A DNA stretch of 32,000 nt from Acaryochloris marina MBIC11017 (GTDB lineage: Bacteria; Cyanobacteriota; Cyanobacteriia; Thermosynechococcales; Thermosynechococcaceae). The notes beneath the pieces are model-generated. The model saw nothing but the letters and a program-made list of their open reading frames with translations, did not search any database and was not told where the DNA came from. Below are positions 10,645 through 31,974 of the stretch, piece after piece. The number at the start of each line of letters is the position of its first letter. Position 1 is the first letter of the stretch. The translations under genes and the position numbers were made by a program. The DNA lies in NCBI RefSeq assembly GCF_000018105.1, contig NC_009925.1, forward strand, positions 3,030,001 to 3,062,000, read 5' to 3'.

Positions 10645-10696
10645 ACCTGATCAAGATGTTATAGGCTGGTCAGGTTTAAAACTCATATTATAAAAT

Positions 10697-10711
10697 GATA
10701 ATCATTATCAC
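10697..10711. promoter_or_regulatory. Zur/Fur-type operator (perfect 7-1-7 palindrome)
   Basis: TGATAATCATTATCA is embedded in an AT-rich 96-bp divergent intergenic region. It lies 53 nt from the start of 9754..10644 and 30 nt from the start of 10741..11967. Confidence 0.75.
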
Positions 10712-10740: not shown

Positions 10741-11967
10741 GTGAACCATCAGATTGACATTGCCATTATTGGGGCAGGTCCCCAGGCACTTACCCTTGTT
10801 ACCCATTTGCTGCAGAAAAAGCCTGCTCTTAAGAATCGCCTTCAGGTTTTTGACCCCAGCGGCACCTGGATGGTCCAGTGGCGGCAACAATTTGCAGCTC
10901 AGGAGATTCCCTATTTACGCTCACCCGGCGTTCATCACCCTGATGTGAAGGAAACTCTCTTCAACTTCGCGGACCATCGTCAGGAGGAGCTGTATTACCC
11001 TTACAATCGCCCTGGAACCCAACTGTTCCAAGATTTTTGTGAGACGGTCGTTGATCGGTGGAAATTACGCGATCAGGTGACTGCCGCTCAGGTGGTTCAA
11101 CTCACGCCCTTGGCAAAGAGATTTCAGCTGCAGCTGGATACGGGGGAACAGGTTGAGGCCCGGCGAGTGGTGTTGGCAACGGGTGGGGGAGCCGCCCAAG
11201 TCCCCGGTTGGACCGCCGAGGTGAATCCACATCCACCCGGACGGTTGTGTCATAGCCAGGACATTAAGCTGCCCAAGCTACCGGATCTGAACGATGAGAC
11301 GGTCCTAATTATTGGCAGTGGTCAATCCAGTGCTCATTTGGCCTTGGGGGCGATTAAGCGCGGAGCCAAGGTTTTGATGATGGCTCGACGGACCCTCAAC
11401 GAAAAACTGTTTGATGCAGAACCAGGATGGTTGGGGCCGAAGTATCTCAAGGGATTTCAGGCAGAACCCGATTGGCAGGTGCGTTGGCAAATGATCCAAG
11501 ACGCTCGCAATGGTGGATCTATTGCCCCTGAATTACTAACCCAGTTACGGCGGTTGTCCCAGTCCGGTCAAGTCACTTTTTATGAACAGTGCCAGGTGTC
11601 CCGTGCCCATTGGCAACAGGAAGCCTGGCAGGTGCAGTGTAATGTGGCCAAAACTCATGATTGTCTGGCCCATCAGCGGATTAAGCGGATCTGGTTAGCC
11701 ACGGGCACCACCACGGATATCACAGCTCATCCTTTGATGGGAGAGATATTGGAGCGATACCCTAATCAGATTGTCAATGGATTGCCAGTGCTCGATGAGC
11801 ATTTGCGCTGGCCTGGATGCGATCTGTTTTTGATGGGGCCATGGGCCGCATTGCACGTGGGTCCCGTCGCCCGGAATTTGCACGGTGGAAGAATGGCGTG
11901 CGATCGCATTGTTCCAGCCCTCACCAAAGCCAGTGTTGCCCGGACTGTGATTCATCCCCCCAGATAA
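10741..11967 (+). CDS. FAD/NAD(P)-binding oxidoreductase (two-dinucleotide-binding-domain flavoprotein)
   Basis: GTG start. First Rossmann motif is IAIIGAGPQA and the second is VLIIGSGQSSAH. 408 aa. Confidence 0.7.
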   Translation: MNHQIDIAIIGAGPQALTLVTHLLQKKPALKNRLQVFDPSGTWMVQWRQQFAAQEIPYLRSPGVHHPDVKETLFNFADHRQEELYYPYNRPGTQLFQDFCETVVDRWKLRDQVTAAQVVQLTPLAKRFQLQLDTGEQVEARRVVLATGGGAAQVPGWTAEVNPHPPGRLCHSQDIKLPKLPDLNDETVLIIGSGQSSAHLALGAIKRGAKVLMMARRTLNEKLFDAEPGWLGPKYLKGFQAEPDWQVRWQMIQDARNGGSIAPELLTQLRRLSQSGQVTFYEQCQVSRAHWQQEAWQVQCNVAKTHDCLAHQRIKRIWLATGTTTDITAHPLMGEILERYPNQIVNGLPVLDEHLRWPGCDLFLMGPWAALHVGPVARNLHGGRMACDRIVPALTKASVARTVIHPPR

Positions 11968-11985
11968 GCATCTTCGCTTATTCTT

Positions 11986-12492
11986 ATGGTTGATATCGCC
12001 CTTTCCCGGTCTCCCATTATGTCTGTTGATCCGTCTCTACCCCCTGCCCTTGCCAAAATCGTGAAGCGCTTTCAATCCATTACAGATACCAAGCGTCGGT
12101 ATGAATATTTACTGTGGTTTGCCAAGCAACTCCCGCCTTTTCCAGAGGCTGATAAGCAGCCTGACAATAAAGTCGTGGGTTGTGTATCTCAGGTTTATGT
12201 CACGGCAACGATAGAGAATGGCCTCGTTCATTTCCAAGGTGACTCGGACGCCCAAATGACCAAAGGGTTAGTGGGGTTACTGATTAAAGGGTTGGATGGG
12301 TTACCCCCAGAACAAATCGCTCGGGTCACACCTGACTTTATCCAACAAACCGGGCTCAATGTGAGCTTGACACCGTCTCGGGCCAATGGATTTTACAACA
12401 TCTTCACCACTCTGCAGCAGCTCGCCCTGACGCTCTCAGCTGCATCATCAGATTCTTTCCCCACTCAGCAATTGGAGGACACCGTTGACTAA
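11986..12492 (+). CDS. sufE: SufE-like sulfur acceptor protein
   Basis: KRRYEYLLWFAKQLP, the active-site VGCVSQVYV, GDSDAQMTKGL and LTPSRANGF match the SufE/CsdE family pattern. An alternative start is at 12019. Confidence 0.85.
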   Translation: MVDIALSRSPIMSVDPSLPPALAKIVKRFQSITDTKRRYEYLLWFAKQLPPFPEADKQPDNKVVGCVSQVYVTATIENGLVHFQGDSDAQMTKGLVGLLIKGLDGLPPEQIARVTPDFIQQTGLNVSLTPSRANGFYNIFTTLQQLALTLSAASSDSFPTQQLEDTVD

Positions 12493-13603
12493 TTCAACTG
12501 CAAACGTTCAGACATCCCAATCCCTGGATATCAATCTGCCCAAAAAAGGCATGCCCGTGACGATTATTACGGGGTTCTTGGGGAGTGGCAAAACCACGCT
12601 CCTCAACCATATTCTCAATACCAGCCAAGACCTCAAGGTGGCTGTACTGGTCAATGAGTTTGGTGATATTGATATTGACAGTCAGTTACTGACCACCATT
12701 GATCAAGATATGGTGCAGCTGACCAATGGCTGCATCTGCTGCACGATCAATGACGACCTGGTGGAGGCGGTCTATTCCGTCCTAGAACGTGAGGAAAAAA
12801 TTGATCATGTCGTTATCGAAACCACGGGGGTGGCTGATCCGCTACCGATTATTCTCACCTTTGTCAGCTCTCAACTGAAAGACGTAACGACGTTAGATTC
12901 CATTATTACCTTGGTAGATTCAGAAACCTTTACCCCTGAATGTTTTCAGAGTGAGGCGGCCCTAAATCAAATTACCTTTGGCGATATTGTCGTTCTCAAC
13001 AAAACCGACCTGACCACCGATCAAAAGGTAGAAGAACTAGAGGAGTGGATTCGTGAACGCAAATGGGGTGCACGGCTCTTGCGATCGCAACAAGGTCAGG
13101 TCCCTCTGCCACTAATTCTGGATACTGCTCTCTTTGATCCAAAGGCTTATGAAGCGGAAGCCAAAGCCTTTGCAGAGGAGGAGGCTCATCACGATCATGA
13201 CGATCACCATCACCACGATCATGACCACCATGATCATGGCCACCACCATCACGGAGATCATGATCATCATCACCATGACGATCATGATCATCACCACCAT
13301 CATTCGGATCATCTCACCGTCGACGGCTTCTCATCTATGGTCTTTGAAAGCGATCGGCCCTTTATCCTAGAAAAAATGCAGGCTTTCGTGACCGATCATC
13401 TACCAGAAGAAGTCTTTCGAGCCAAAGGTTTTATGTGGTTTGAGAAAAATACATCCCGCTATATTTTTCAGCTCAGTGGCAAGCGCTATACAATGGATGC
13501 TGATCAGTGGCCGGATGCCCCAAAAAATCAGTTAGTCTTTATTGGCCGCAACATTGACAAAGCACAGCTTAACCAACTGCTAACGGATTGTTTAGCTCCC
13601 TAA
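12485..13603 (+). CDS. COG0523 (CobW/ZigA/Zng1-type) metallochaperone GTPase with a His/Asp-rich insert
   Basis: P-loop GFLGSGKTTLLN, the metal-binding CICCT motif, NKTDL, and a 42-residue His/Asp tract. The TTG start overlaps the sufE-like stop by 8 nt. An alternative ATG start at 12548 gives MPVTIITG. Confidence 0.9.
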   Translation: MTNSTANVQTSQSLDINLPKKGMPVTIITGFLGSGKTTLLNHILNTSQDLKVAVLVNEFGDIDIDSQLLTTIDQDMVQLTNGCICCTINDDLVEAVYSVLEREEKIDHVVIETTGVADPLPIILTFVSSQLKDVTTLDSIITLVDSETFTPECFQSEAALNQITFGDIVVLNKTDLTTDQKVEELEEWIRERKWGARLLRSQQGQVPLPLILDTALFDPKAYEAEAKAFAEEEAHHDHDDHHHHDHDHHDHGHHHHGDHDHHHHDDHDHHHHHSDHLTVDGFSSMVFESDRPFILEKMQAFVTDHLPEEVFRAKGFMWFEKNTSRYIFQLSGKRYTMDADQWPDAPKNQLVFIGRNIDKAQLNQLLTDCLAP

Positions 13604-16848: not shown

Positions 16849-16933
16849 AGTGGCTCTCCACATTCAAACATTCAAAGCAGTATTAGAACGTTACCGCACC
16901 CAATTCAAACATTCAAGCCAACATTAGAATGAC

Positions 16934-17299
16934 TTATTCAACCAGTTGGTTCAGTGTATGGTGGAGAATCTCAGCGACGCGCTGATCCTTGAGAGAGTAG
17001 TACGCTAATTTGCCATCATTGCGATACTTCAGAATTTGGAGATCCCGTAGCTTTCGTAAGTGGTGGGATGCCGTTGCGATCTTCATCCCCAGCAAAGACG
17101 CAACATCACAAACACAGAGTTCAGTTCCTTCACTCAGGGCATACAAAATCTTTAATCGGGACCGATCCGCTAACGCACTGAACAGCACTTGAGCCTCCAC
17201 CAGCAGATCTTCTCCCGGCAGTGCTTCATTCGCTTGGGTGACCAAGTCTTGGTTAAAACAACGGACTTGGCAAATATCTGTGGGCTTAGTCTGGGTCAC
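16934..17299 (-). CDS. ArsR/SmtB family metal-sensing repressor
   Basis: ELCVCDVASLLGMKIATASHHLRKLRDLQILKYRNDGKLAYYSL is the classical ArsR wHTH with the CVC (alpha3) motif. N-terminal cysteines occur in DICQVRC. GTG start. Confidence 0.88.
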   Translation of the reverse strand: MTQTKPTDICQVRCFNQDLVTQANEALPGEDLLVEAQVLFSALADRSRLKILYALSEGTELCVCDVASLLGMKIATASHHLRKLRDLQILKYRNDGKLAYYSLKDQRVAEILHHTLNQLVE

Positions 17300-18124: not shown

Positions 18125-19607
18125 CAATGGCACTGACTTAAGAAGTCAGGAAAAGGCTACAAGTCTTGATAGATATAGGATCAAGACTTGCACGCCATAA
18201 ACTTCTGCCTTTCACTATGTCTGAGTCAGCCGAAATTCTCAAGCAGCAATTTTCCCAAAGCCTGGGTTTACCGTGGACAGATATCCTTCTAGCCTCAAGG
18301 TTAGAGGAACTCCTGAAAGAAGAAGCATTCTCCTATCGCAACCGGATATATAGCCCCATCGTTACGCTGTGGGCCATGCTTTACCAAGTGCTATCAGCCG
18401 ATAAAAGCCTTCGTAACACAGTCAAATGCATCACGACTTGGCTCACAGCGGCTGGCATCCAACCGCCCTCATCTGATACCGGAGCCTACAGCAAAGCCAG
18501 AAGTCGCTTTCCAGAGTCACTGTTGCAACGTTTAATTCCCGAAAGCGCTGAGTGCTTAGCGCAACCCCTCTCCCCAGAGCACCTCTGGTGTGGTCGGCCC
18601 GTCAAGGTCTACGACGGAACCACCGTGTTGATGGCTGATAGTGCGGCCAACCAAGCATCATATCCACAACATGGCAATCAAACAGCAGGCTGTGGTTTTC
18701 CCATCGCTCGCTTGGTAGTGTTCTTCTGCTTGGTTACCGGTGCAGTGGCGTCAGCTTGTATTGCCTCCTGGGACACCAGTGAAATTGTCATGAGTCGTTT
18801 GCTCTATCAAGACCTTGAGGTCGGTGATGTGGTCATGGCGGACCAAGCTTATGGCAGCTATGTTGATCTAGCCATCATTCAACAACACAGGGCTGATGGA
18901 GTGTTGCGTAAACATCATGCTCGCAAGACTGATTTCCGCAAAGGCAACAAGCATGGCATTGGTGATCATCAGGTGACATGGCATAAGCCAGCCCAACGGC
19001 CTGAGCACATGAGTGAGCAAGATTTTGCCCTGATTCCTCAAACATTGGTCGTTAGAGAGGTGTGTTTGCGCTTATCCCTTAAGGGCTTTCGCGACCAGCA
19101 CATTATTGTGGTGACGACGCTGCTGGATGCTCAACGCTACAGCGCTGGGCAACTGACTCGCTTGTATGGCTGGCGTTGGCCAATGGCGGAAGTCAATCTG
19201 CGCCATCTCAAAACCACCTTAAAAATGGAGATGCTCAGTGCCAAAACTCCGGATATGGTGCGCAAGGACATTTGGGTACATTTGTTGGGCTATAACCTAC
19301 TCAGAAGTCTCATGGAACTTGCGGCACCGCTAGCAGATAATGCTAGAACTCAACTGTCTGTGCAAGGAGCACGACAACACTTCAATCAGATGCTTGCTTT
19401 GTTGGCGACAGCCAACCGTGCGACCAGAAAGCGGTTGTTTACTCATCTACTTGAGACCATGGCAGCCGATCTATTACCCTCTCGACCGAATCGGCACGAA
19501 CCGAGAGTCGTCAAACGCAGACCCAAATCTTTCCCGCGAATGCGACAACCTCGCTCTGCTCTCAAAGCTAAGCTAGCTGTTTGATTGAGCTTAAGTCAGT
19601 GCCATTG
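18125..19607 (+). mobile_element. IS4-family insertion sequence (1483 bp), apparently intact
   Basis: Perfect 18-nt terminal inverted repeats: CAATGGCACTGACTTAAG at 18125-18142 and its reverse complement at 19590-19607. The element is flanked by the identical direct repeat ATCTAACGGAT at 18114-18124 and 19608-19618. Confidence 0.85.
18217..19584 (+). CDS. IS4-family DDE transposase
   Basis: Candidate DDE blocks are VYDGTTVLMADS, VVMADQAYGSY and YGWRWPMAEVNLRHLKTTLKM (Y-R-E-K region). The ATG at 18217 is the first ATG inside the track ORF, which starts at 18166. Confidence 0.88.
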   Translation: MSESAEILKQQFSQSLGLPWTDILLASRLEELLKEEAFSYRNRIYSPIVTLWAMLYQVLSADKSLRNTVKCITTWLTAAGIQPPSSDTGAYSKARSRFPESLLQRLIPESAECLAQPLSPEHLWCGRPVKVYDGTTVLMADSAANQASYPQHGNQTAGCGFPIARLVVFFCLVTGAVASACIASWDTSEIVMSRLLYQDLEVGDVVMADQAYGSYVDLAIIQQHRADGVLRKHHARKTDFRKGNKHGIGDHQVTWHKPAQRPEHMSEQDFALIPQTLVVREVCLRLSLKGFRDQHIIVVTTLLDAQRYSAGQLTRLYGWRWPMAEVNLRHLKTTLKMEMLSAKTPDMVRKDIWVHLLGYNLLRSLMELAAPLADNARTQLSVQGARQHFNQMLALLATANRATRKRLFTHLLETMAADLLPSRPNRHEPRVVKRRPKSFPRMRQPRSALKAKLAV

Positions 19608-19758: not shown

Positions 19759-20238
19759 ATGCCCAGACCCTTACGAATTGATATCTGTGAAAGTGAAGAC
19801 ACACTCAAACGTTTATTACGTCAACAATCCTCCGGTCGTCGCAAAGAACGCTTGCAAGCCCTCTACTGGCTCAAAAGTGGTCAAGTCACCACTCGCATGG
19901 AGTTGGCAACCCTGACCGGACGAGGGGAATCCACGGTGTATCGCTGGATCAAACTCTATAAATCAGGGGGATTACAGGCAATGCTGGAGATTCCTACCTC
20001 TCCTGGGAAGCCCCCCATGATTGGTGGAGAGGTCCTCGAAAAGCTGAAAGCTCGTCTAGCTGACCCCAGGGGCTTTGAGAGCTACGGGGCGATTCAACAA
20101 TGGCTTTTAGATGAGTGTGGATTAGACGTACCCTACAAAACGGTTCATCAAACCGTGCATTATCGGCTCAAAGCCAAGCTCAAAGTTCCTCGACCTCGCT
20201 CACGCAAGACAGAGGAAGCTCAACAACAAGCCTATTAA
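19759..20238 (+). CDS. IS630-family transposase, N-terminal HTH part (OrfA)
   Basis: Winged-helix/HTH region (RMELATLTGRGESTVYRWIKLYKSGGLQAM), typical of IS630/Tc1 transposase N-termini. Confidence 0.8.
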   Translation: MPRPLRIDICESEDTLKRLLRQQSSGRRKERLQALYWLKSGQVTTRMELATLTGRGESTVYRWIKLYKSGGLQAMLEIPTSPGKPPMIGGEVLEKLKARLADPRGFESYGAIQQWLLDECGLDVPYKTVHQTVHYRLKAKLKVPRPRSRKTEEAQQQAY

Positions 20239-20251
20239 AAAACTTCCTCGT

Positions 20252-20818
20252 GTGATTGAGGTAATGACCCGCTATTTTGCCCAAGGACACCCAGTGCGCT
20301 ACTGGTGCATGGATGAAAGCCGCTGGGGACTCAAGACACTCACGGGTCGGGTTCTAACGTTGCGGGGTGTCAAACCTGTGGTGACGGTACAGTGGCCCCG
20401 AGAGGCTTTCTGGCTCTATGGCGCTGTCGAACCTCTCACAGGAGACAGTTTCTTCTATCGGTTTTCTCATCTCGATAGTGTTTGTTTTGAGCGCTTCCTG
20501 GAGCAATTCAGCTTGGCGTTTCCCCAGAGTCTCAATCTGATGCAAATAGATCAAGCCGCAGCCCATATGGCGACTTGGGTTCGATGGCCTGAGAATGTGT
20601 TGCCGATTGTACAGCCGTCTCATAGTCCAGAACTCAATCCGGCAGAGCGATTATGGCAGGACCTAAGAAAGCCTTTCAAAGGCAAAAACTTTGATTCTAT
20701 TGGGGCACTGGAGACCGCTTTATTTGAGCATATCAATACCCTCTCCCAGAAGGTGGTGGCTTCTCTAACGGGATATTCTTATATCTTGGATGCTTTGACT
20801 ATAAAGGTCACTCAATAA
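20252..20818 (+). CDS. IS630-family transposase, DDE catalytic part (OrfB)
   Basis: YWCMDESRWGL, LMQIDQAAAHM and PSHSPELNPAERLWQDLR are the DDE blocks of IS630/Tc1-mariner-type transposases. This ORF is in the +1 frame relative to OrfA. Confidence 0.8.
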   Translation: MIEVMTRYFAQGHPVRYWCMDESRWGLKTLTGRVLTLRGVKPVVTVQWPREAFWLYGAVEPLTGDSFFYRFSHLDSVCFERFLEQFSLAFPQSLNLMQIDQAAAHMATWVRWPENVLPIVQPSHSPELNPAERLWQDLRKPFKGKNFDSIGALETALFEHINTLSQKVVASLTGYSYILDALTIKVTQ

Positions 20819-20829
20819 GTGAATTGGTA

Positions 20830-21279
20830 TCAGGTTACAACACGACACACAATCTGTGGCTTTGTGGTTGAAATAACATCAACGCAATGATTTAGGCAAC
20901 AAAAACCATAGTGGCTGAATGGACCTGGGTAGTCAGAAGTGGCGAACGTGCTAACCTCCATAAACTCTAGATAAGCCGAACTTTTGTAAAGACGAGCTAA
21001 CTTGCCGACGTAGTTGTCTTGAGGTGCATTATCGGCATAAGACTCGTTCGCGACGTTGTAACAAATGTACTCAGCAAAAAATATTTCATAAATAGCACAG
21101 CCTTCGGTAGTTTCAATGTTACGCAGCCCAGATATTGTTGTACCAGCTATTTCCATGTCATGCTCTGGGCCATTCGCTGTAGCTTCGGCTAAGACTAGAC
21201 GTAGAGTATTATCTTCTGGTTCGGTAATTGATTCGAGGTACAGATACTTACTTCTGTTGATTTGATCGAAAGCTTCCAT
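20830..21279 (-). CDS. hypothetical acidic Cys-containing protein, compositionally atypical
   Basis: 149-aa ORF starting 6 nt after the DUF2063 gene stop. It looks lower in GC than its neighbours and has no HIP1 site. There is no TM segment and no recognised family. Its stop codon coincides with the IS630 terminus. Confidence 0.5.
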   Translation of the reverse strand: MEAFDQINRSKYLYLESITEPEDNTLRLVLAEATANGPEHDMEIAGTTISGLRNIETTEGCAIYEIFFAEYICYNVANESYADNAPQDNYVGKLARLYKSSAYLEFMEVSTFATSDYPGPFSHYGFCCLNHCVDVISTTKPQIVCRVVT

Positions 21280-21285
21280 GAGAGC

Positions 21286-22095
21286 CTAACTATTCTCATC
21301 TAAGCCAAGCATAAATCCGGATATCCATCCTCGCTGAACCCAGATTGGAAGCAAGGCTGCCACGTCAATCTCATCGTTGTGCTCAAACTGGGCGCAAATC
21401 TCTCCAAACGGAGCACCGGAAGCAAACGCCTGTAGGAGCTGCCACTCAGCAACATTGGGCAAGTCAATGCGGGTTTCATACTGGTCTCGCCAGAGAAACA
21501 GATTCACGTCGCCTTCATTTAGATCGATGGTCTCGGTACTGGCGGCATTGGCCTGATTCACTTGCCAAATTCGGTGAACCGGATAGGGGGAGGTCATTAA
21601 GACACTATGGTCGGGGAGTTGGAGCACCAGTTCGGGCCAACGGTCAGGCGGCACTTGACCCAAGGCCGCCAAATCTAAACCCGGTTGGTCTGAACTGTTA
21701 AAGATGCAGTGCCAATGCCACTCTAAGCGGGCTACATCCGGCAGATAGGGTAACGAAGCCGCTGGTTCAAACGCTGCGATAAATGCCGGGAGCTGTTCCC
21801 CATAATCTCCGAGATCGTGGGATTGAGAGGGATTGCGGCGGATATATTGCCGAGCCATGGCGGTAAAAAACTGGACCCCCACCAACCGACAACAGACGGG
21901 ATAAATATCTTCGAGGGCACGGCTCAATTTACCGACGACGCTGCCTTGGTAAGCCGATAAACCTCGTTCGAAGGAGAGGTGTTCAGTGCTGCGCATTTGA
22001 GGTTGGAGCTGCTGGATGCTGTCGGCATCTTTGGTTGAGATCGCACCATAAAACAACCGCTGTAACTCTCTTAATTCTGGGGGCGGTGTTGACAT
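21286..22095 (-). CDS. DUF2063-family partner protein of the MNIO enzyme (BufC-like)
   Basis: 269 aa. It overlaps the upstream DUF692 gene by 25 nt. The N-terminus (LQRLFYGAI...) and its position directly after DUF692 match the conserved DUF692-DUF2063 pair. Confidence 0.75.
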   Translation of the reverse strand: MSTPPPELRELQRLFYGAISTKDADSIQQLQPQMRSTEHLSFERGLSAYQGSVVGKLSRALEDIYPVCCRLVGVQFFTAMARQYIRRNPSQSHDLGDYGEQLPAFIAAFEPAASLPYLPDVARLEWHWHCIFNSSDQPGLDLAALGQVPPDRWPELVLQLPDHSVLMTSPYPVHRIWQVNQANAASTETIDLNEGDVNLFLWRDQYETRIDLPNVAEWQLLQAFASGAPFGEICAQFEHNDEIDVAALLPIWVQRGWISGFMLGLDENS

Positions 22096-22901
22096 AGATA
22101 GGTGTCGGCCTGCTGGGCTTCGGCCATCAAAACATCAAAGCTGGGAATATCCGTATCCCATTCAATCAACGTCGGCACCGGACCAAACCGCTGGAGCGCT
22201 TGCTGATAGAGCGTCCAGACTCCAGGCTGGACTGGATAGCCGTGGGTATCAAATAAAAAGTGGTCCTGCTCTTCATAACCCGCTAGATGGATCTCTTTAA
22301 TCCGATCGACGGGCAACGCATCCAGATAATCCAAGGGGTCAAAGCCATGATTGGTGGCATTGACATAGACATTGTTAATATCCAAAAGCAGATGACAATC
22401 GGCCTCAACTAAAAGGGCGGCTAAGAACTGCCATTCGGTCAGGCTGTTGTGGCGAAACTGAAGATAGGGCGATAGGTTCTCAATCAAAATCCGGCGACCG
22501 AGAAATTCCTGTACCTGCGAAATCCGATCGGCAACGTAATGGAGCACTGATTCCGTATAGGGCAGCGGTGCTAAGTCATTGAAGTAATGGCCGTTGACGG
22601 ACACCCAGGCCAGATGATCAGAGACATGAACCGGTTCGATCCGATCCGCCAGTTGCTTGAGCTGAGTTAGGTAGTCCATATTCAGCGGATCTGCTGACCC
22701 CAGGGACAGACTAACGCCATGGAGGGTGATCGGATACTGGGCTCGAATTTGTTCTAGGTGATACAGGGGCAATCCACCCCCCAAATAATTGTCGGAGAGG
22801 GCTTCTAGCCAGGGTATGGCTGGTTGATGGGTGAGGATATGGGCGTAATGTTGCGATCGCAACCCAATCCCAGCACCCTGAATTGCAGTCATGGCAACCA
22901 T
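22071..22901 (-). CDS. DUF692/UPF0276 multinuclear non-heme iron oxidase (MNIO; BufB/MbnB-like)
   Basis: GAGIGLRSQHY, LEALSDNY, HGVSLSLGS, SDHLAW, LIENLS, LLLDINNVYVN, IHLAGY and LIEWD follow the TIM-barrel DUF692 block order. I prefer the ATG at 22901 because GGAG lies 6 nt upstream. The longer track ORF (to 22946) would read through a strong hairpin. Confidence 0.85.
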   Translation of the reverse strand: MVAMTAIQGAGIGLRSQHYAHILTHQPAIPWLEALSDNYLGGGLPLYHLEQIRAQYPITLHGVSLSLGSADPLNMDYLTQLKQLADRIEPVHVSDHLAWVSVNGHYFNDLAPLPYTESVLHYVADRISQVQEFLGRRILIENLSPYLQFRHNSLTEWQFLAALLVEADCHLLLDINNVYVNATNHGFDPLDYLDALPVDRIKEIHLAGYEEQDHFLFDTHGYPVQPGVWTLYQQALQRFGPVPTLIEWDTDIPSFDVLMAEAQQADTYLCQHRPQN

Positions 22902-22921
22902 AAAATACTCCAAAACGTAAG

Positions 22922-22946
22922 GTGCCTGCTTTTCACAAGCAGGCAC
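22922..22946 (-). terminator. hairpin between the precursor and enzyme genes (possible partial terminator or attenuator)
   Basis: On the minus strand: GTGCCTGCTT-gtgaa-AAGCAGGCAC, a perfect 10-bp stem, then CTTACGTTTTGG. It lies 25 nt after the precursor stop and 20 nt before the MNIO start. Confidence 0.5.
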
Positions 22947-22971
22947 TCAAACTTTGCATGATTGAAACGAC

Positions 22972-23286
22972 CTAACCTTCTTTCTTGCCTTCTTCAACCG
23001 CTTCAGCAGGGGGGGCAGCTTCTTTCAAGGTAGATCCAACAATCTTTTCACAGGTGCCAGCAGGCACATAAATCCACTCTTCTGGATCATTATCAACGGT
23101 GGCTTTACCAGAGCAGTCATGCTTGCTAGTACCACAGTCATTGAGACCAGCCTTGACGATACCGGCGCACTTTTCATAACCGGGCTTACCAGCAACCGCA
23201 TCATCCGATTGAGTTGCCACTAGGCCGAGAGCCAGCACACCGGATAAAGCAGTGGTAACAGCAACGGCTTTAGTCGTCGTTTTCAT
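22972..23286 (-). CDS. DUF2282-family RiPP precursor with a Sec signal peptide (bufferin BufA1-like)
   Basis: Signal peptide [24 protein letters not shown], then [47 protein letters not shown]. This shows the four conserved Cys and the EWIYVP.GTCEKI block of DUF2282. The tail is acidic and Ala/Pro-rich. Confidence 0.85.
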
Positions 23287-23710
23287 AATGGAGAATTCCT
23301 TTTAGGATTGTGCATTCTTTGAGCAGCGTAAGCCGACGCTTGGCTGTTGCTCACATATAGAATACGAGCAACTCCTCCCTTTGGATGTAGATTGTTCGAG
23401 TTTATCGGCGTTTGCACCCAGATTCGTTGCCTAAAGAGCGCTTGGAGCATGGCGATGGTCTCTGACTGGCCTGCCTCCAGAGAAGGAGCTAAGTCCTGCG
23501 AACGCCCAAAGGTACGCTAACGGCCATCACAAACCCACTGCCAAAAACAACAGTAGTTTTGAGAATATCACTGTGCTTTCCTCTCGATTGCACCATGGAT
23601 CAAATATAAAATTCTCCTTAAATCTTATAAAATTGGGATCGTTCATATCCTTATAGCCTGGCTGAAAAATCAGCACAGGCTTAAGTTTTTTTATTTATTT
23701 GGAGATAAAA

Positions 23711-24223
23711 GTGAAGAAACAAGCATTAACTCTTGCTTTAGCGAGTATCCTCATCCCTGCAAGCGCTTACGCTTCCGATATCACCACTGAAGAAGTCGAA
23801 GCAGCACAAGCCGCGTGGGGTAATGGCATTGTAGAAATCGGTAAAGCTGAAGACCCTAAACAAGCCGCTATCGCCCATATTGATAAGTTCTATGGGTTTG
23901 ATATGGGTTCCGTTTTGTTCAAGCCCACCTTAGCGTCTGAGGATCAATTCCGAGGGACTAAGCAAGAAGCTTTGTCTTATTTCATCGGTCAAGATTTGAA
24001 GGAAGACAAGGGGTTTGCCCTTGCACCTTACACTAAAGTTCGCTGGGAAAACGAAGGCATCATCGTTGACGATGACTCAGCTGTAGCAATGGGAAATTAC
24101 TTCTTCACCAAAACCGATGGTGAAGAAGTCAAAGTGGAGTTTACCCTTGGTTACGTTAAAGATGAAAATGGCAACTTAAAGATTAATCTGCATCATTCAT
24201 CCCTACCCTATAGCGCCAACTAA
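23711..24223 (+). CDS. secreted NTF2-like (COG4337/SgcJ-EcaC-like) protein; candidate iota-class carbonic anhydrase
   Basis: GTG at 23711 with GGAG 6 nt upstream. Signal peptide KKQALTLALASILIPASAYA. The AAQAAWGNGIV start is typical of NTF2-like folds. The C-terminal INLHHSSLPY matches the HHSS motif reported for iota-CAs. I am confident it is a CDS; the functional call is tentative. Confidence 0.5.
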   Translation: MKKQALTLALASILIPASAYASDITTEEVEAAQAAWGNGIVEIGKAEDPKQAAIAHIDKFYGFDMGSVLFKPTLASEDQFRGTKQEALSYFIGQDLKEDKGFALAPYTKVRWENEGIIVDDDSAVAMGNYFFTKTDGEEVKVEFTLGYVKDENGNLKINLHHSSLPYSAN

Positions 24224-26600: not shown

Positions 26601-26628
26601 GACGATGACCTCATCGGAGAATGGTTGA

Positions 26629-26643
26629 GATAACGATTATCAT
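26629..26643. promoter_or_regulatory. Zur/Fur-type operator upstream of the COG0523-WD40 operon
   Basis: The minus strand reads ATGATAATCGTTATC. The window offset by one base reads TGATAATCGTTATCT and matches TGATAATnATTATCA at all but two positions. It lies about 30 nt upstream of the start at 26600. Confidence 0.6.
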
Positions 26644-27133: not shown

Positions 27134-28114
27134 ATGAATGTTGTTTTTATTTTGGGAAATGGATTTGATCTTAACCTGGGATTAAACACCAGCTACTCCG
27201 ATTTTTACAACTACTATAAAAAACAAGTTTCATCAAACGAAGTAATCAAAGAGTTAAAGGAAAATATAGATTCAAATACAGAAAACTGGTCTGATCTAGA
27301 GCTTCAATTGGGGCGCTATACCTCAAGACTAAAAGATCAAAATGACTTCGATATTTTCTATTTCGATATAGTAGACAATCTAAGAGACTATCTTGATCTT
27401 GAAGAAGATAGTTTTGACTACTCTGCATTTGACAAGTCCGTATTGTTGAGAGATCTTGTTGAGCCTGAAAGAGTTTTATCTCAGAGAGAAAGAAATAAAC
27501 TAACAGATTGGTATCGAAAATTCGGAGGTAATATAAACACTAACATTTTGACATTTAATTATACTCAAACAATTGAAAAAATACTTGGCAAAAATGCCAC
27601 TAGTCAGCCGATTGGCACAAATAATAAAGGCGTACAAGTTTTACTAAATAGTATTGACCACATACATGGATATCTTGAAGATGGTCTCGTACTAGGAGTA
27701 AATGATGAGGAACAAATTGAAAATGAAAAATTACGTCTGTCTCAGGAGGTTGTCGAGGCCATTGTTAAGCCCATGCACAATCAAGAGTTAGGGCATACGA
27801 GAGATGATCGCTGCATGCAAGTTATATCTGCAGCGAACCTAATATTTGTGTTTGGCTGTTCGATTGGTAAATCTGATCAGATGTGGTGGGAAAAAGTTGG
27901 CAGCACACTAGGGGAATCTTGTCGGCTAGTTATATTTCATCGAGGTAGTAATGTGAATAGCCAGAATGATATCCTGTATGCTCGTGAGAATCGTAAGATA
28001 ATAAATCGATTTTTATCACTAACGAACTTGGATGAAGAAAAAAGGGACATTGCAAAGCAGTATATTACCGCTGCTGTGACTAAAGACCTGTTCAAGCTTG
28101 TCAAAAGTACATAA
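27134..28114 (+). CDS. AbiH-like abortive-infection (phage defence) protein
   Basis: The N-terminus MNVVFILGNGFDLNLGLNTSYSDFYNYY matches the hallmark GNGFDL..GL.TSY.DF start of the AbiH family. The 326-aa length fits. The gene is strongly AT-rich with no HIP1 sites, unlike the flanking DNA. Confidence 0.72.
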   Translation: MNVVFILGNGFDLNLGLNTSYSDFYNYYKKQVSSNEVIKELKENIDSNTENWSDLELQLGRYTSRLKDQNDFDIFYFDIVDNLRDYLDLEEDSFDYSAFDKSVLLRDLVEPERVLSQRERNKLTDWYRKFGGNINTNILTFNYTQTIEKILGKNATSQPIGTNNKGVQVLLNSIDHIHGYLEDGLVLGVNDEEQIENEKLRLSQEVVEAIVKPMHNQELGHTRDDRCMQVISAANLIFVFGCSIGKSDQMWWEKVGSTLGESCRLVIFHRGSNVNSQNDILYARENRKIINRFLSLTNLDEEKRDIAKQYITAAVTKDLFKLVKST

Positions 28115-31499: not shown

Positions 31500-31895
31500 T
31501 TAGGCTAAAGCCCCCACTTCAGCGCAGTTCTGGCATAGGCCAAAGAATTCTAGGGTGTGGTAAAAGACTTGAAATTTCTGGGTTTGGGCAAGCTCTTGTT
31601 CTAACTCGTGGACTGGGCAGTTCAGCAATGGCATGGAAGTGCCACAGTTGACACAAGTCAGATGATGCCGATGAGCAGAAGCAATACTATAGACTGCTTC
31701 ACCATTCGTCAAAGTACGCGTTTGCACCTTGCCATGCTGTTGGAGAACCTTGAGGGCACGGTAAATGGTTGCCAACCCCACTCGTTGTTGCTGTTTTTTT
31801 AACTCTTGGTGCAGATCCTGAGCAGAGAACTCTTGGGGCGTGGAAAAGAGGACTTCCAACACGCGCCGCTGATGAGGGGTTAGTTTCTCTGGCAT
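31500..31895 (-). CDS. zur: Fur-family metalloregulator, most likely Zur
   Basis: LTPHQRRVLEVL...GLATIYRALKVL is the DNA-binding helix. The HRHHLTCVNCG and CQNC motifs give two CxxC pairs plus a His cluster. I prefer the ATG at 31895 because AGGAG lies upstream. The Zur assignment, rather than Fur or PerR, rests on the neighbouring COG0523 genes and Zur-type boxes. Confidence 0.75.
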   Translation of the reverse strand: MPEKLTPHQRRVLEVLFSTPQEFSAQDLHQELKKQQQRVGLATIYRALKVLQQHGKVQTRTLTNGEAVYSIASAHRHHLTCVNCGTSMPLLNCPVHELEQELAQTQKFQVFYHTLEFFGLCQNCAEVGALA

Positions 31896-31959
31896 GCTCA
31901 ACTCCTTACTGCACCTGGAATGAGAACAGTTTTTTGGCAAATCACAAGATTATCAAACA

Positions 31960-31974
31960 TGATTATCATTCTCA
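31960..31974. promoter_or_regulatory. Zur/Fur-type box upstream of the Fur-family gene
   Basis: TGATTATCATTCTCA matches TGATAATnATTATCA at 12 of 14 specified positions. A second GATTATCA half-site lies at 31948-31955. Confidence 0.5.

Follow-up and report, generated by a model that had tools for sequence, protein, structure and literature searches.

The buf gene cluster of Acaryochloris marina

This analysis concerns a small gene cluster on the chromosome of the cyanobacterium Acaryochloris marina MBIC11017 (NCBI RefSeq assembly GCF_000018105.1, contig NC_009925.1), located in a stretch of 32,000 nucleotides (nt; positions 3,030,001 to 3,062,000 of the forward strand) that is called the window throughout and whose own numbering is used below. 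Positions 20830-23286 of the minus strand were first annotated from the sequence as three genes, encoding a DUF2282 peptide, a DUF692 enzyme of the MNIO type (oxidative, dependent on multinuclear non-heme iron) and a DUF2063 partner protein. Profile searches place all three products in these families, and the genes, here called bufA, bufB and bufC, very likely form a functional Buf1-type bufferin operon. The open reading frame (ORF) listing of the window contains four tightly packed, co-oriented ORFs in this interval rather than three, the additional one being ORF149, which the initial annotation had left unmentioned. The cluster comprises the following features (aa, amino acids; bp, base pairs):

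22972-23286, minus strand: bufA, BufA1/DUF2282 precursor of 104 aa (PF10048, E 1e-23).
22071-22901, minus strand: bufB, MNIO (DUF692) bufferin maturase of 276 aa without a signal peptide (PF05114, E 4e-109).
21286-22095, minus strand: bufC, DUF2063 / PME-type-1 partner of 269 aa (PF09836, E 8e-20).
20830-21279, minus strand: ORF149, treated as a passenger gene, 149 aa, 6 nt 3' of bufC, without a Pfam or NCBIfam match.
22922-22946, minus strand: bufA-bufB intercistronic hairpin, a 10-bp stem followed by CTTACGTTTT.
23363-23387, minus strand: two-part promoter-like motif CATCCA-N15-CGTA, located 77-101 nt upstream of the start codon (ATG) of bufA.

The assignment of the three genes to a bufferin-type operon for a peptide that is synthesized on the ribosome and modified after translation (RiPP), already proposed in the initial annotation, is supported by the profile searches, by conserved residues and by synteny. 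The host, which had been described as looking cyanobacterial, is indeed one, as BufA is 100% identical to A. marina proteins; BufB and BufC are likewise identical to proteins of this species, encoded on chromosome AP026075.1 and also in strain MBIC11017. For comparison with other organisms, a BufB scan was carried out with one genome per species, and the best 80 of 362 loci were kept, 11 of them cyanobacterial and 69 the nearest non-cyanobacterial ones; individual loci are referred to by their L numbers. All three buf genes are intact and under strong purifying selection, with ratios of nonsynonymous to synonymous divergence (dN/dS) of 0-0.1 for bufA, 0.035-0.07 for bufB and ~0.12 for bufC in comparisons with relatives whose synonymous divergence is saturated or near-saturated, and BufA is 100% identical to the copy in locus L013 at a dS of 0.30.

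The BufA precursor

BufA scores 83.5 bits against PF10048 (DUF2282, now BufA1), for which the cut-off is 22.4, and shares 60-70% identity with many proteobacterial proteins named BufA1. It retains every one of the 16 columns that are invariant in an alignment of 44 sequences, among them the four cysteines CysI-IV at residues 40, 51, 58 and 79, which are found in the motifs EKC, NDC, HDC and GTCEKI and align with those of proteobacterial BufA1; the core near the two central cysteines is almost identical to that of the proteobacterial proteins. Both the four conserved cysteines and the Sec signal peptide had been recognised in the initial annotation. The latter, called here by inspection together with Kyte-Doolittle hydropathy, is predicted at residues 1-32 (nt 23191-23286) and consists of an n-region with K2 and K6, a 19-residue hydrophobic core with a mean Kyte-Doolittle value of 1.96 and an A-V-A site, so that cleavage would occur after AVA and before G33.

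In the AlphaFold2 model of BufA a helix at residues 15-24 falls inside the signal peptide, past which the protein has no hydrophobic segment. The predicted mature BufA is acidic, has 72 residues and an unmodified mass of ~7.4 kDa. Its core (residues 31-90) is modelled with moderate confidence as a small beta/alpha structure, with predicted local distance difference test (pLDDT) means of 66-90 for 10-residue blocks, followed by a tail that drops below 50 at residues 98-104. A search of the PDB with the BufA sequence returned noise only.

The BufB maturase and its BufC partner

Within PF05114 (MbnB_TglH_ChrH), which is the MNIO family, BufB is assigned specifically to the bufferin maturases, as it reaches 376.8 bits with the NCBIfam MNIO_BufB equivalog (cut-off 310) and stays under the cut-offs of the HvfB, MbnB, ApyH and ChrH models. 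All columns conserved in at least 93% of 81 homologues are kept, and the conserved residues include H61, H96, E141, D174, N177, H205, D218, H220 and E247, nine positions which we equate with the MNIO iron ligands of published MbnB structures. The nearest solved structure found in a PDB search is 3bww, a DUF692 protein (E 1e-45). The start of bufB is most likely the ATG at 22901, giving 276 aa, and not the GTG at 22946. The ATG is preceded by GGAG and is used in public gene calls; the 291-aa form starting at the GTG had no match in an exact-sequence look-up and was discarded.

The bufC gene follows bufB in all cyanobacterial loci. As stated in the initial annotation, the two genes overlap by 25 nt (22071-22095); the overlap recurs in L011-L014 and suggests translational coupling.

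Promoter motif and intercistronic hairpin

The motif CATCC(A/G)-N15-CGTA matches once in the window (23363-23387), where 0.07 matches are expected. It also occurs once, at the equivalent spot upstream of bufA, in every locus from Acaryochloris, the uncultured cyanobacterium and the Pseudanabaenaceae, and only two occurrences were found in the other ~80 fetched loci. Judging from its form, CATCCA-N15-CGTA is a candidate promoter of the extracytoplasmic function (ECF) sigma type. Induction by copper or metal stress, often via a pair of an ECF sigma factor and an anti-sigma factor (NrsF), is a trait expected of Buf1-type clusters. In Caulobacter, the buf operons are under the control of ECF sigma factors (PMC11626156). 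The window contains no ECF sigma or anti-sigma (NrsF) genes. Furthermore, no 9-mer motif was common to at least seven of nine cyanobacterial bufA upstream regions, and no short inverted repeats that could serve as operators were found in the promoter regions of bufA, the COG0523 genes, arsR and the abhydrolase gene.

The hairpin between bufA and bufB is stable and resembles a terminator, with a weak U-tract after the 10-bp stem. Its stem is kept in the Acaryochloris loci L011-L013, with one compensatory change from G-C to A-T in L012, and hairpins of other sequence are found at the same position between bufA and bufB in L014-L016. The element is probably an attenuator or partial terminator, or else an mRNA stabiliser, that would favour the precursor transcript.

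Distribution in cyanobacteria and supposed peculiarities of the cluster

Among the best 80 of the 362 loci, BufB identity is 94-96% in Acaryochloris metagenome-assembled genomes (MAGs), 90% in the uncultured cyanobacterium, 80% in Pseudanabaenaceae and 65-69% in Caldora, Symploca, Oscillatoria and Hormoscilla, and it falls to ~55% beyond the cyanobacteria (Proteobacteria and others). In a neighbour-joining bootstrap analysis (numpy) the cyanobacterial BufB proteins are monophyletic in 200 of 200 replicates. The gene order A-B-C is found in 10 of the 11 cyanobacterial loci, and a BufA protein search adds named BufA1 proteins in Moorena, Dapis, Hydrocoleum, Cyanothece and A. thomasi. Given the monophyletic BufB clade and the named BufA1 proteins in further genera, bufferins are established, though patchily distributed, in cyanobacteria that are mainly marine benthic or host-associated.

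Two loci of this set show arrangements of their own. The Caldora locus L017 (4873-7473) carries bufB and bufC with no detectable bufA upstream, an OmpA-family ORF being found in its place. In the Pseudanabaenaceae loci L015 (9867-10616) and L016 (9853-10578) a gene for an Rce1-like CAAX protease follows bufC on the same strand and might serve the cluster as an accessory gene specific to this lineage.

The identification itself is not new. RefSeq and UniRef already carry bufferin names for these exact sequences, BufA being listed in RefSeq as a BufA1 family periplasmic bufferin-type metallophore, BufB as an MNIO family bufferin maturase and BufC as an HvfC/BufC N-terminal domain-containing protein. 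In the supplementary genome table of a published MNIO survey, the row of GCF_000018105.1 has one Buf1 (WP_012163454.1, this BufA), one DUF692, one DUF2063 (WP_012163452.1, this BufC) and seven DoxX proteins (Leprevost et al., 2025; PMC12452194). Cyanobacteria are not treated in the main texts of the papers on bufferins, and the literature searched contained no text discussing a cyanobacterial bufferin and none for the locus tags AM1_3025-3028.

The features put forward as unusual in the initial annotation were the cyanobacterial host, the missing DoxX gene and the zinc-regulon neighbourhood, which is taken up below; an acidic Ala/Pro-rich tail of the precursor was noted as well. The host, the missing DoxX gene and the tail are real, and none of them sets the cluster apart. 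The host belongs to a whole clade of cyanobacterial carriers, with the RefSeq name and the survey entry already in place. As for DoxX, a profile hidden Markov model (HMM) built from the genes after bufC in 20 proteobacterial loci, whose seed was verified as PF07681, detects no DoxX-like ORF in the window; within 8 kb of the buf genes, DoxX is present in none of the 11 cyanobacterial loci and in 32 of the 69 nearest non-cyanobacterial ones, thus absent from the remaining 37. Hence, lacking DoxX is the rule throughout the cyanobacterial clade and is frequent outside it as well. In experiments, neither the function nor the modification of Buf1 was found to require DoxX, and the buf2 cluster of Caulobacter has no such gene (PMC11626156). 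DoxX is a frequent core gene of Buf1-type clusters and not an essential one; the seven DoxX genes of A. marina lie elsewhere in the genome (PMC12452194).

The tail comprises the 17 residues 88-104 of BufA, is predicted by AlphaFold2 to be disordered and contains no Cys, His or Met, hence no metal-ligand residues. It is common to the subclade of Acaryochloris, the uncultured cyanobacterium and the Pseudanabaenaceae. Symploca, Oscillatoria and Hormoscilla have a short tail or none, and the tails of Nitrospira BufA proteins are quite different. The tail is thus variable within the family, and nothing suggests that it alters metal specificity.

Relation to characterised MNIO systems

The closest counterparts are the buf1ABCD operon of Caulobacter vibrioides (CCNA_03363-03366) and the gig operon of Cupriavidus metallidurans, which have the same DUF2282-MNIO-DUF2063 order, a Sec signal, four cysteines and very similar core motifs around CysII and CysIII. 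In contrast to them, the Acaryochloris operon has no bufD/doxX and no nearby gene for an ECF sigma factor or an NrsF anti-sigma factor, encodes a precursor with a 17-residue acidic Ala/Pro tail and resides in a thylakoid-bearing cyanobacterium. The A-B-C layout without DoxX is shared with the Caulobacter buf2ABC cluster (CCNA_02999-03001), whose precursor is, however, of the 6-Cys Buf_6/12Cys type; against the BufA2 model the Acaryochloris BufA scores 19.8 bits, with a cut-off of 60.

MNIO and DUF2063 proteins also occur together in HvfABC of nontypeable Haemophilus influenzae and in the EGKCG oxazolin or 'captophorin' clusters (fontiphorin, gonophorin), which likewise perform cysteine chemistry on a precursor with a signal peptide and bind copper (PMC11252979; PMC13097082). 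Their precursors carry EGKCG or Lys-Cys repeats and no DUF2282, whereas BufA is free of EGKCG repeats. Assignment to this type was rejected, as BufB reaches 259 bits with HvfB (cut-off 360) and BufC matches the NCBIfam HvfC model weakly (28.6 bits, cut-off 142). In the methanobactin system MbnABC, an MNIO enzyme similarly converts a cysteine of a ribosomal peptide to a copper-chelating heterocycle with a sulfur ligand, but the Acaryochloris operon has neither MbnC nor the leader-peptide logic and differs in its export route. This type was discarded as well, given a score of 70.4 bits with MbnB (cut-off 325) and a DUF2063 partner instead of MbnC.

Among cyanobacterial proteins, the periplasmic copper-binding protein CopM of Synechocystis PCC 6803 is controlled by the two-component system CopRS and contains no heterocycles. 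CopM and BufA belong to unrelated protein families, and copper buffering outside the cyanobacterial cytoplasm is likely to be the role they share.

Genomic surroundings

The metal-related genes of the window comprise two of the COG0523 type, one of the FUR family (Zur, 31500-31940), an ArsR gene (16934-17299) paired with a cation diffusion facilitator (CDF) gene, and a homologue of metal-independent carbonic anhydrases. Scanning the window for the 7-1-7 Zur box of cyanobacteria (TGATAATNATTATCA-like) gave eight matches where 1.66 would be expected, a number reached in 0 of 100 shuffles. Three of these eight lie directly before genes of this set, the other matches being located inside a His/Asp-rich coding run, and two mobile elements are found between the buf cluster and the ArsR-CDF pair:

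10696-10710: Zur box, perfect match, 31 nt before the operon of a monooxygenase dependent on flavin adenine dinucleotide (FAD), SufE and COG0523.
26628-26642: Zur box, two mismatches, 28 nt before the COG0523-WD40 operon.
31960-31974: Zur box, two mismatches, before the FUR-family gene.
18166-19584, plus strand: IS4-like insertion sequence (IS) element, between ORF149 and a DUF29 gene.
19759-20818, plus strand: IS630-like element, with a helix-turn-helix part at 19759-20238 and DDE_3 at 20252-20818.

For the COG0523 gene of the COG0523-WD40 operon (AM1_3031), the position beside a WD40 gene near zur has been described previously (Barnett et al., 2012). At the site taken up by the two IS elements, L013 has a spacer of 61 bp. 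The stretch after bufC is variable in Acaryochloris and holds ORF149, an ankyrin gene, other small genes or nothing.

Several of the neighbouring genes have properties worth recording. The FAD-dependent monooxygenase, SufE and COG0523 GTPase genes (10741-13603, plus strand) are a combination not usually seen in a Zur regulon, and a His/Asp-rich run lies at 13255-13293 in this COG0523 GTPase gene. Between the arsR-type gene and a short CDF transporter gene, two 14-nt direct repeats TTGAATGTTTGAAT (16862-16916, minus strand), 41 nt apart, may form an operator. The carbonic-anhydrase homologue (23699-24223, plus strand) is divergent from bufA; it matches NCBIfam NF047901 with E 3e-38, below the cut-off, and Pfam MICAH in the public call, is absent from MAG L011 and is not preceded by a Zur box.

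Proposed function and alternative explanations

The mechanism described for Caulobacter Buf1 serves as the model for all maturation and binding steps proposed here (PMC11626156). By this analogy, a cytoplasmic BufB-BufC complex would oxidise Cys51 and Cys58 of BufA to 5-thiooxazoles, with a loss of 4 Da each; BufA would then be exported by Sec and cut by signal peptidase after Ala32, a disulfide would form between Cys40 and Cys79, and the mature 72-residue protein would, once outside the cytoplasm, sequester Cu(I)/Cu(II) present in excess. Transcription probably starts from the conserved CATCCA-N15-CGTA promoter, which is not sigma-70-like, and is probably not under Zur control; the hairpin after bufA probably leads to more precursor than enzyme transcript, and the bufB/bufC overlap probably couples translation of the two genes.

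Several observations weigh against this picture. Copper as the metal is taken by analogy from distant proteobacterial relatives only, and no copper-related genes were found near the buf genes in the window or at the other cyanobacterial loci. The BufC sequence matches no solved structure in the PDB. Cyanobacterial Sec signals lead to the thylakoid lumen or to the periplasm, so BufA may be delivered to either compartment. The order of the COG0523-WD40 operon, bufABC and the arsR-CDF pair is conserved within Acaryochloris, where the buf operon always lies between the Zur-box COG0523 operon and the ArsR-CDF pair on its own strand; in MAG L011 all these genes are co-linear on one strand with no divergent gene between them, which makes read-through or a shared metal response conceivable.

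The initial annotation had placed the operon in a zinc-regulon neighbourhood, and the Acaryochloris bufferin might accordingly act in Zn/Cd homeostasis, be regulated by Zur or ArsR and bind Zn or Cd instead of or besides Cu. Apart from the conserved placement, the ArsR protein has N-terminal Cys residues, a CVC motif and an incomplete alpha-5 site, features which we take to fit a Cd/Zn/Pb-type sensor, and the literature allows other metals for some bufferins, as in MerC fusions. The zinc-regulon setting is real, but the regulatory link is not borne out. While true Zur boxes directly precede both COG0523 operons and the FUR-family gene, no 7-1-7 box with up to three mismatches is found in the 412 bp between bufA and the divergent carbonic-anhydrase homologue (23287-23698), so bufA was rejected as a member of the Zur regulon; in the 11 other cyanobacterial loci the sole match upstream of bufA is a site with three mismatches ~300 nt away in L021. 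When neighbourhoods are compared across cyanobacteria, as the initial annotation had proposed, the zinc context is gone in Pseudanabaenaceae, Symploca, Oscillatoria, Hormoscilla and the uncultured cyanobacterium, and the buf neighbours outside Acaryochloris encode a histidine kinase, an amine oxidase, an Rce1-like protease, aminopeptidase P, UvrC, ribosomal protein L19, NusG and RTX proteins, none of them metal-related. The near identity of the BufA core at the two central cysteines to proteobacterial BufA1, the lack of His, Cys and Met in the tail and the variable, IS-invaded segment between bufC and arsR speak against it as well. A zinc or cadmium bufferin thus appears improbable, and the zinc genes are neighbours of the operon and not parts of it, although the conserved gene order and the co-linearity in L011 leave room for a zinc link specific to the Acaryochloris lineage. 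Similarly doubtful is a combined reading with an ECF-like promoter, in which the bufferin was recruited to an Acaryochloris metal island dealing with Zn/Cd and Cu, or acts as a copper buffer in the lumen, the latter being considered in view of the second destination of Sec signals in cyanobacteria, the thylakoid lumen; such a lumenal buffer would serve the supply of plastocyanin or cytochrome oxidase.

One could see in ORF149 a fourth functional gene of the operon, standing in for DoxX in this lineage. The gap to bufC, which is on the same strand, is only 6 nt and holds no obvious terminator, ORF149 is conserved under purifying selection (dN/dS 0.18), and the bufC-ORF149 arrangement recurs in the Acaryochloris locus L013. 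However, ORF149 is missing from L011 and L012, is separated from bufC by an oppositely oriented ankyrin gene in L003, is absent from every non-Acaryochloris buf locus and, unlike DoxX, has no signal peptide or membrane segments. Its family is unnamed, ~150 aa long, with 29 homologue clusters at 34-95% identity and an invariant DYPGPF-H-C segment. Three homologues outside Acaryochloris were examined in nine places, with IS110/IS91 transposases, integrases and small-ORF arrays nearby; one homologue directly follows an HNH-like gene, and none of the nine places is near buf genes. On this synteny ORF149 was rejected as a DoxX substitute, a role that is hardly to be expected, and it is treated as a passenger gene that may be co-transcribed with the buf genes without being a bufferin component. 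In the AlphaFold2 model (pLDDT 88.5) its best PDB fold match is the polymorphic toxin-immunity complex 8owu, which is not significant (E 0.1, template modelling score 0.4-0.5), and it may be an orphan immunity-type gene. Equally remote is the idea of a cluster left over, inactive, from horizontal transfer, or of BufA as a secreted or membrane protein without modification. BufA was formerly annotated as a 'predicted integral membrane protein', IS elements come within 12 bp of the end of the cluster, and with the nearest non-cyanobacterial BufB only ~55% identical an ancient transfer is plausible. Against this stand the three intact and strongly constrained ORFs, the intact BufB positions that we equate with iron ligands, the G+C content of the cluster (~0.50, equal to that of its flanks), the absence of any hydrophobic segment in BufA besides the signal peptide, and a cyanobacterial clade old enough to span several orders.

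With a functional Buf1-type operon as the preferred interpretation, the locus has been correctly recognised as belonging to the largest MNIO RiPP family known and, as found, matters little. Copper must reach the thylakoid lumen and yet is toxic, which is a special problem of cyanobacteria. The residual value of the locus lies in pointing to cyanobacterial bufferins, which are experimentally untouched and whose destination and metal response are easily testable. The clade formed by Acaryochloris, Pseudanabaenaceae and filamentous genera of the marine benthos provides a clean candidate set for determining where such Sec-exported RiPPs go in cells whose Sec system serves two compartments, and which metal they respond to, as all its members lack DoxX and a subclade shares the promoter motif and the hairpin after the precursor gene.

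Other features of the window

Two observations concern genes at some distance from the cluster. An AbiH abortive-infection gene (27134-28114, plus strand) lies in a patch of low G+C content (0.36 against ~0.49 elsewhere) that is probably a small acquired defence islet. A thiamine pyrophosphate riboswitch (Rfam RF00059, 64.5 bits) is located at 2594-2687 on the minus strand, upstream of thiC (1210-2586).

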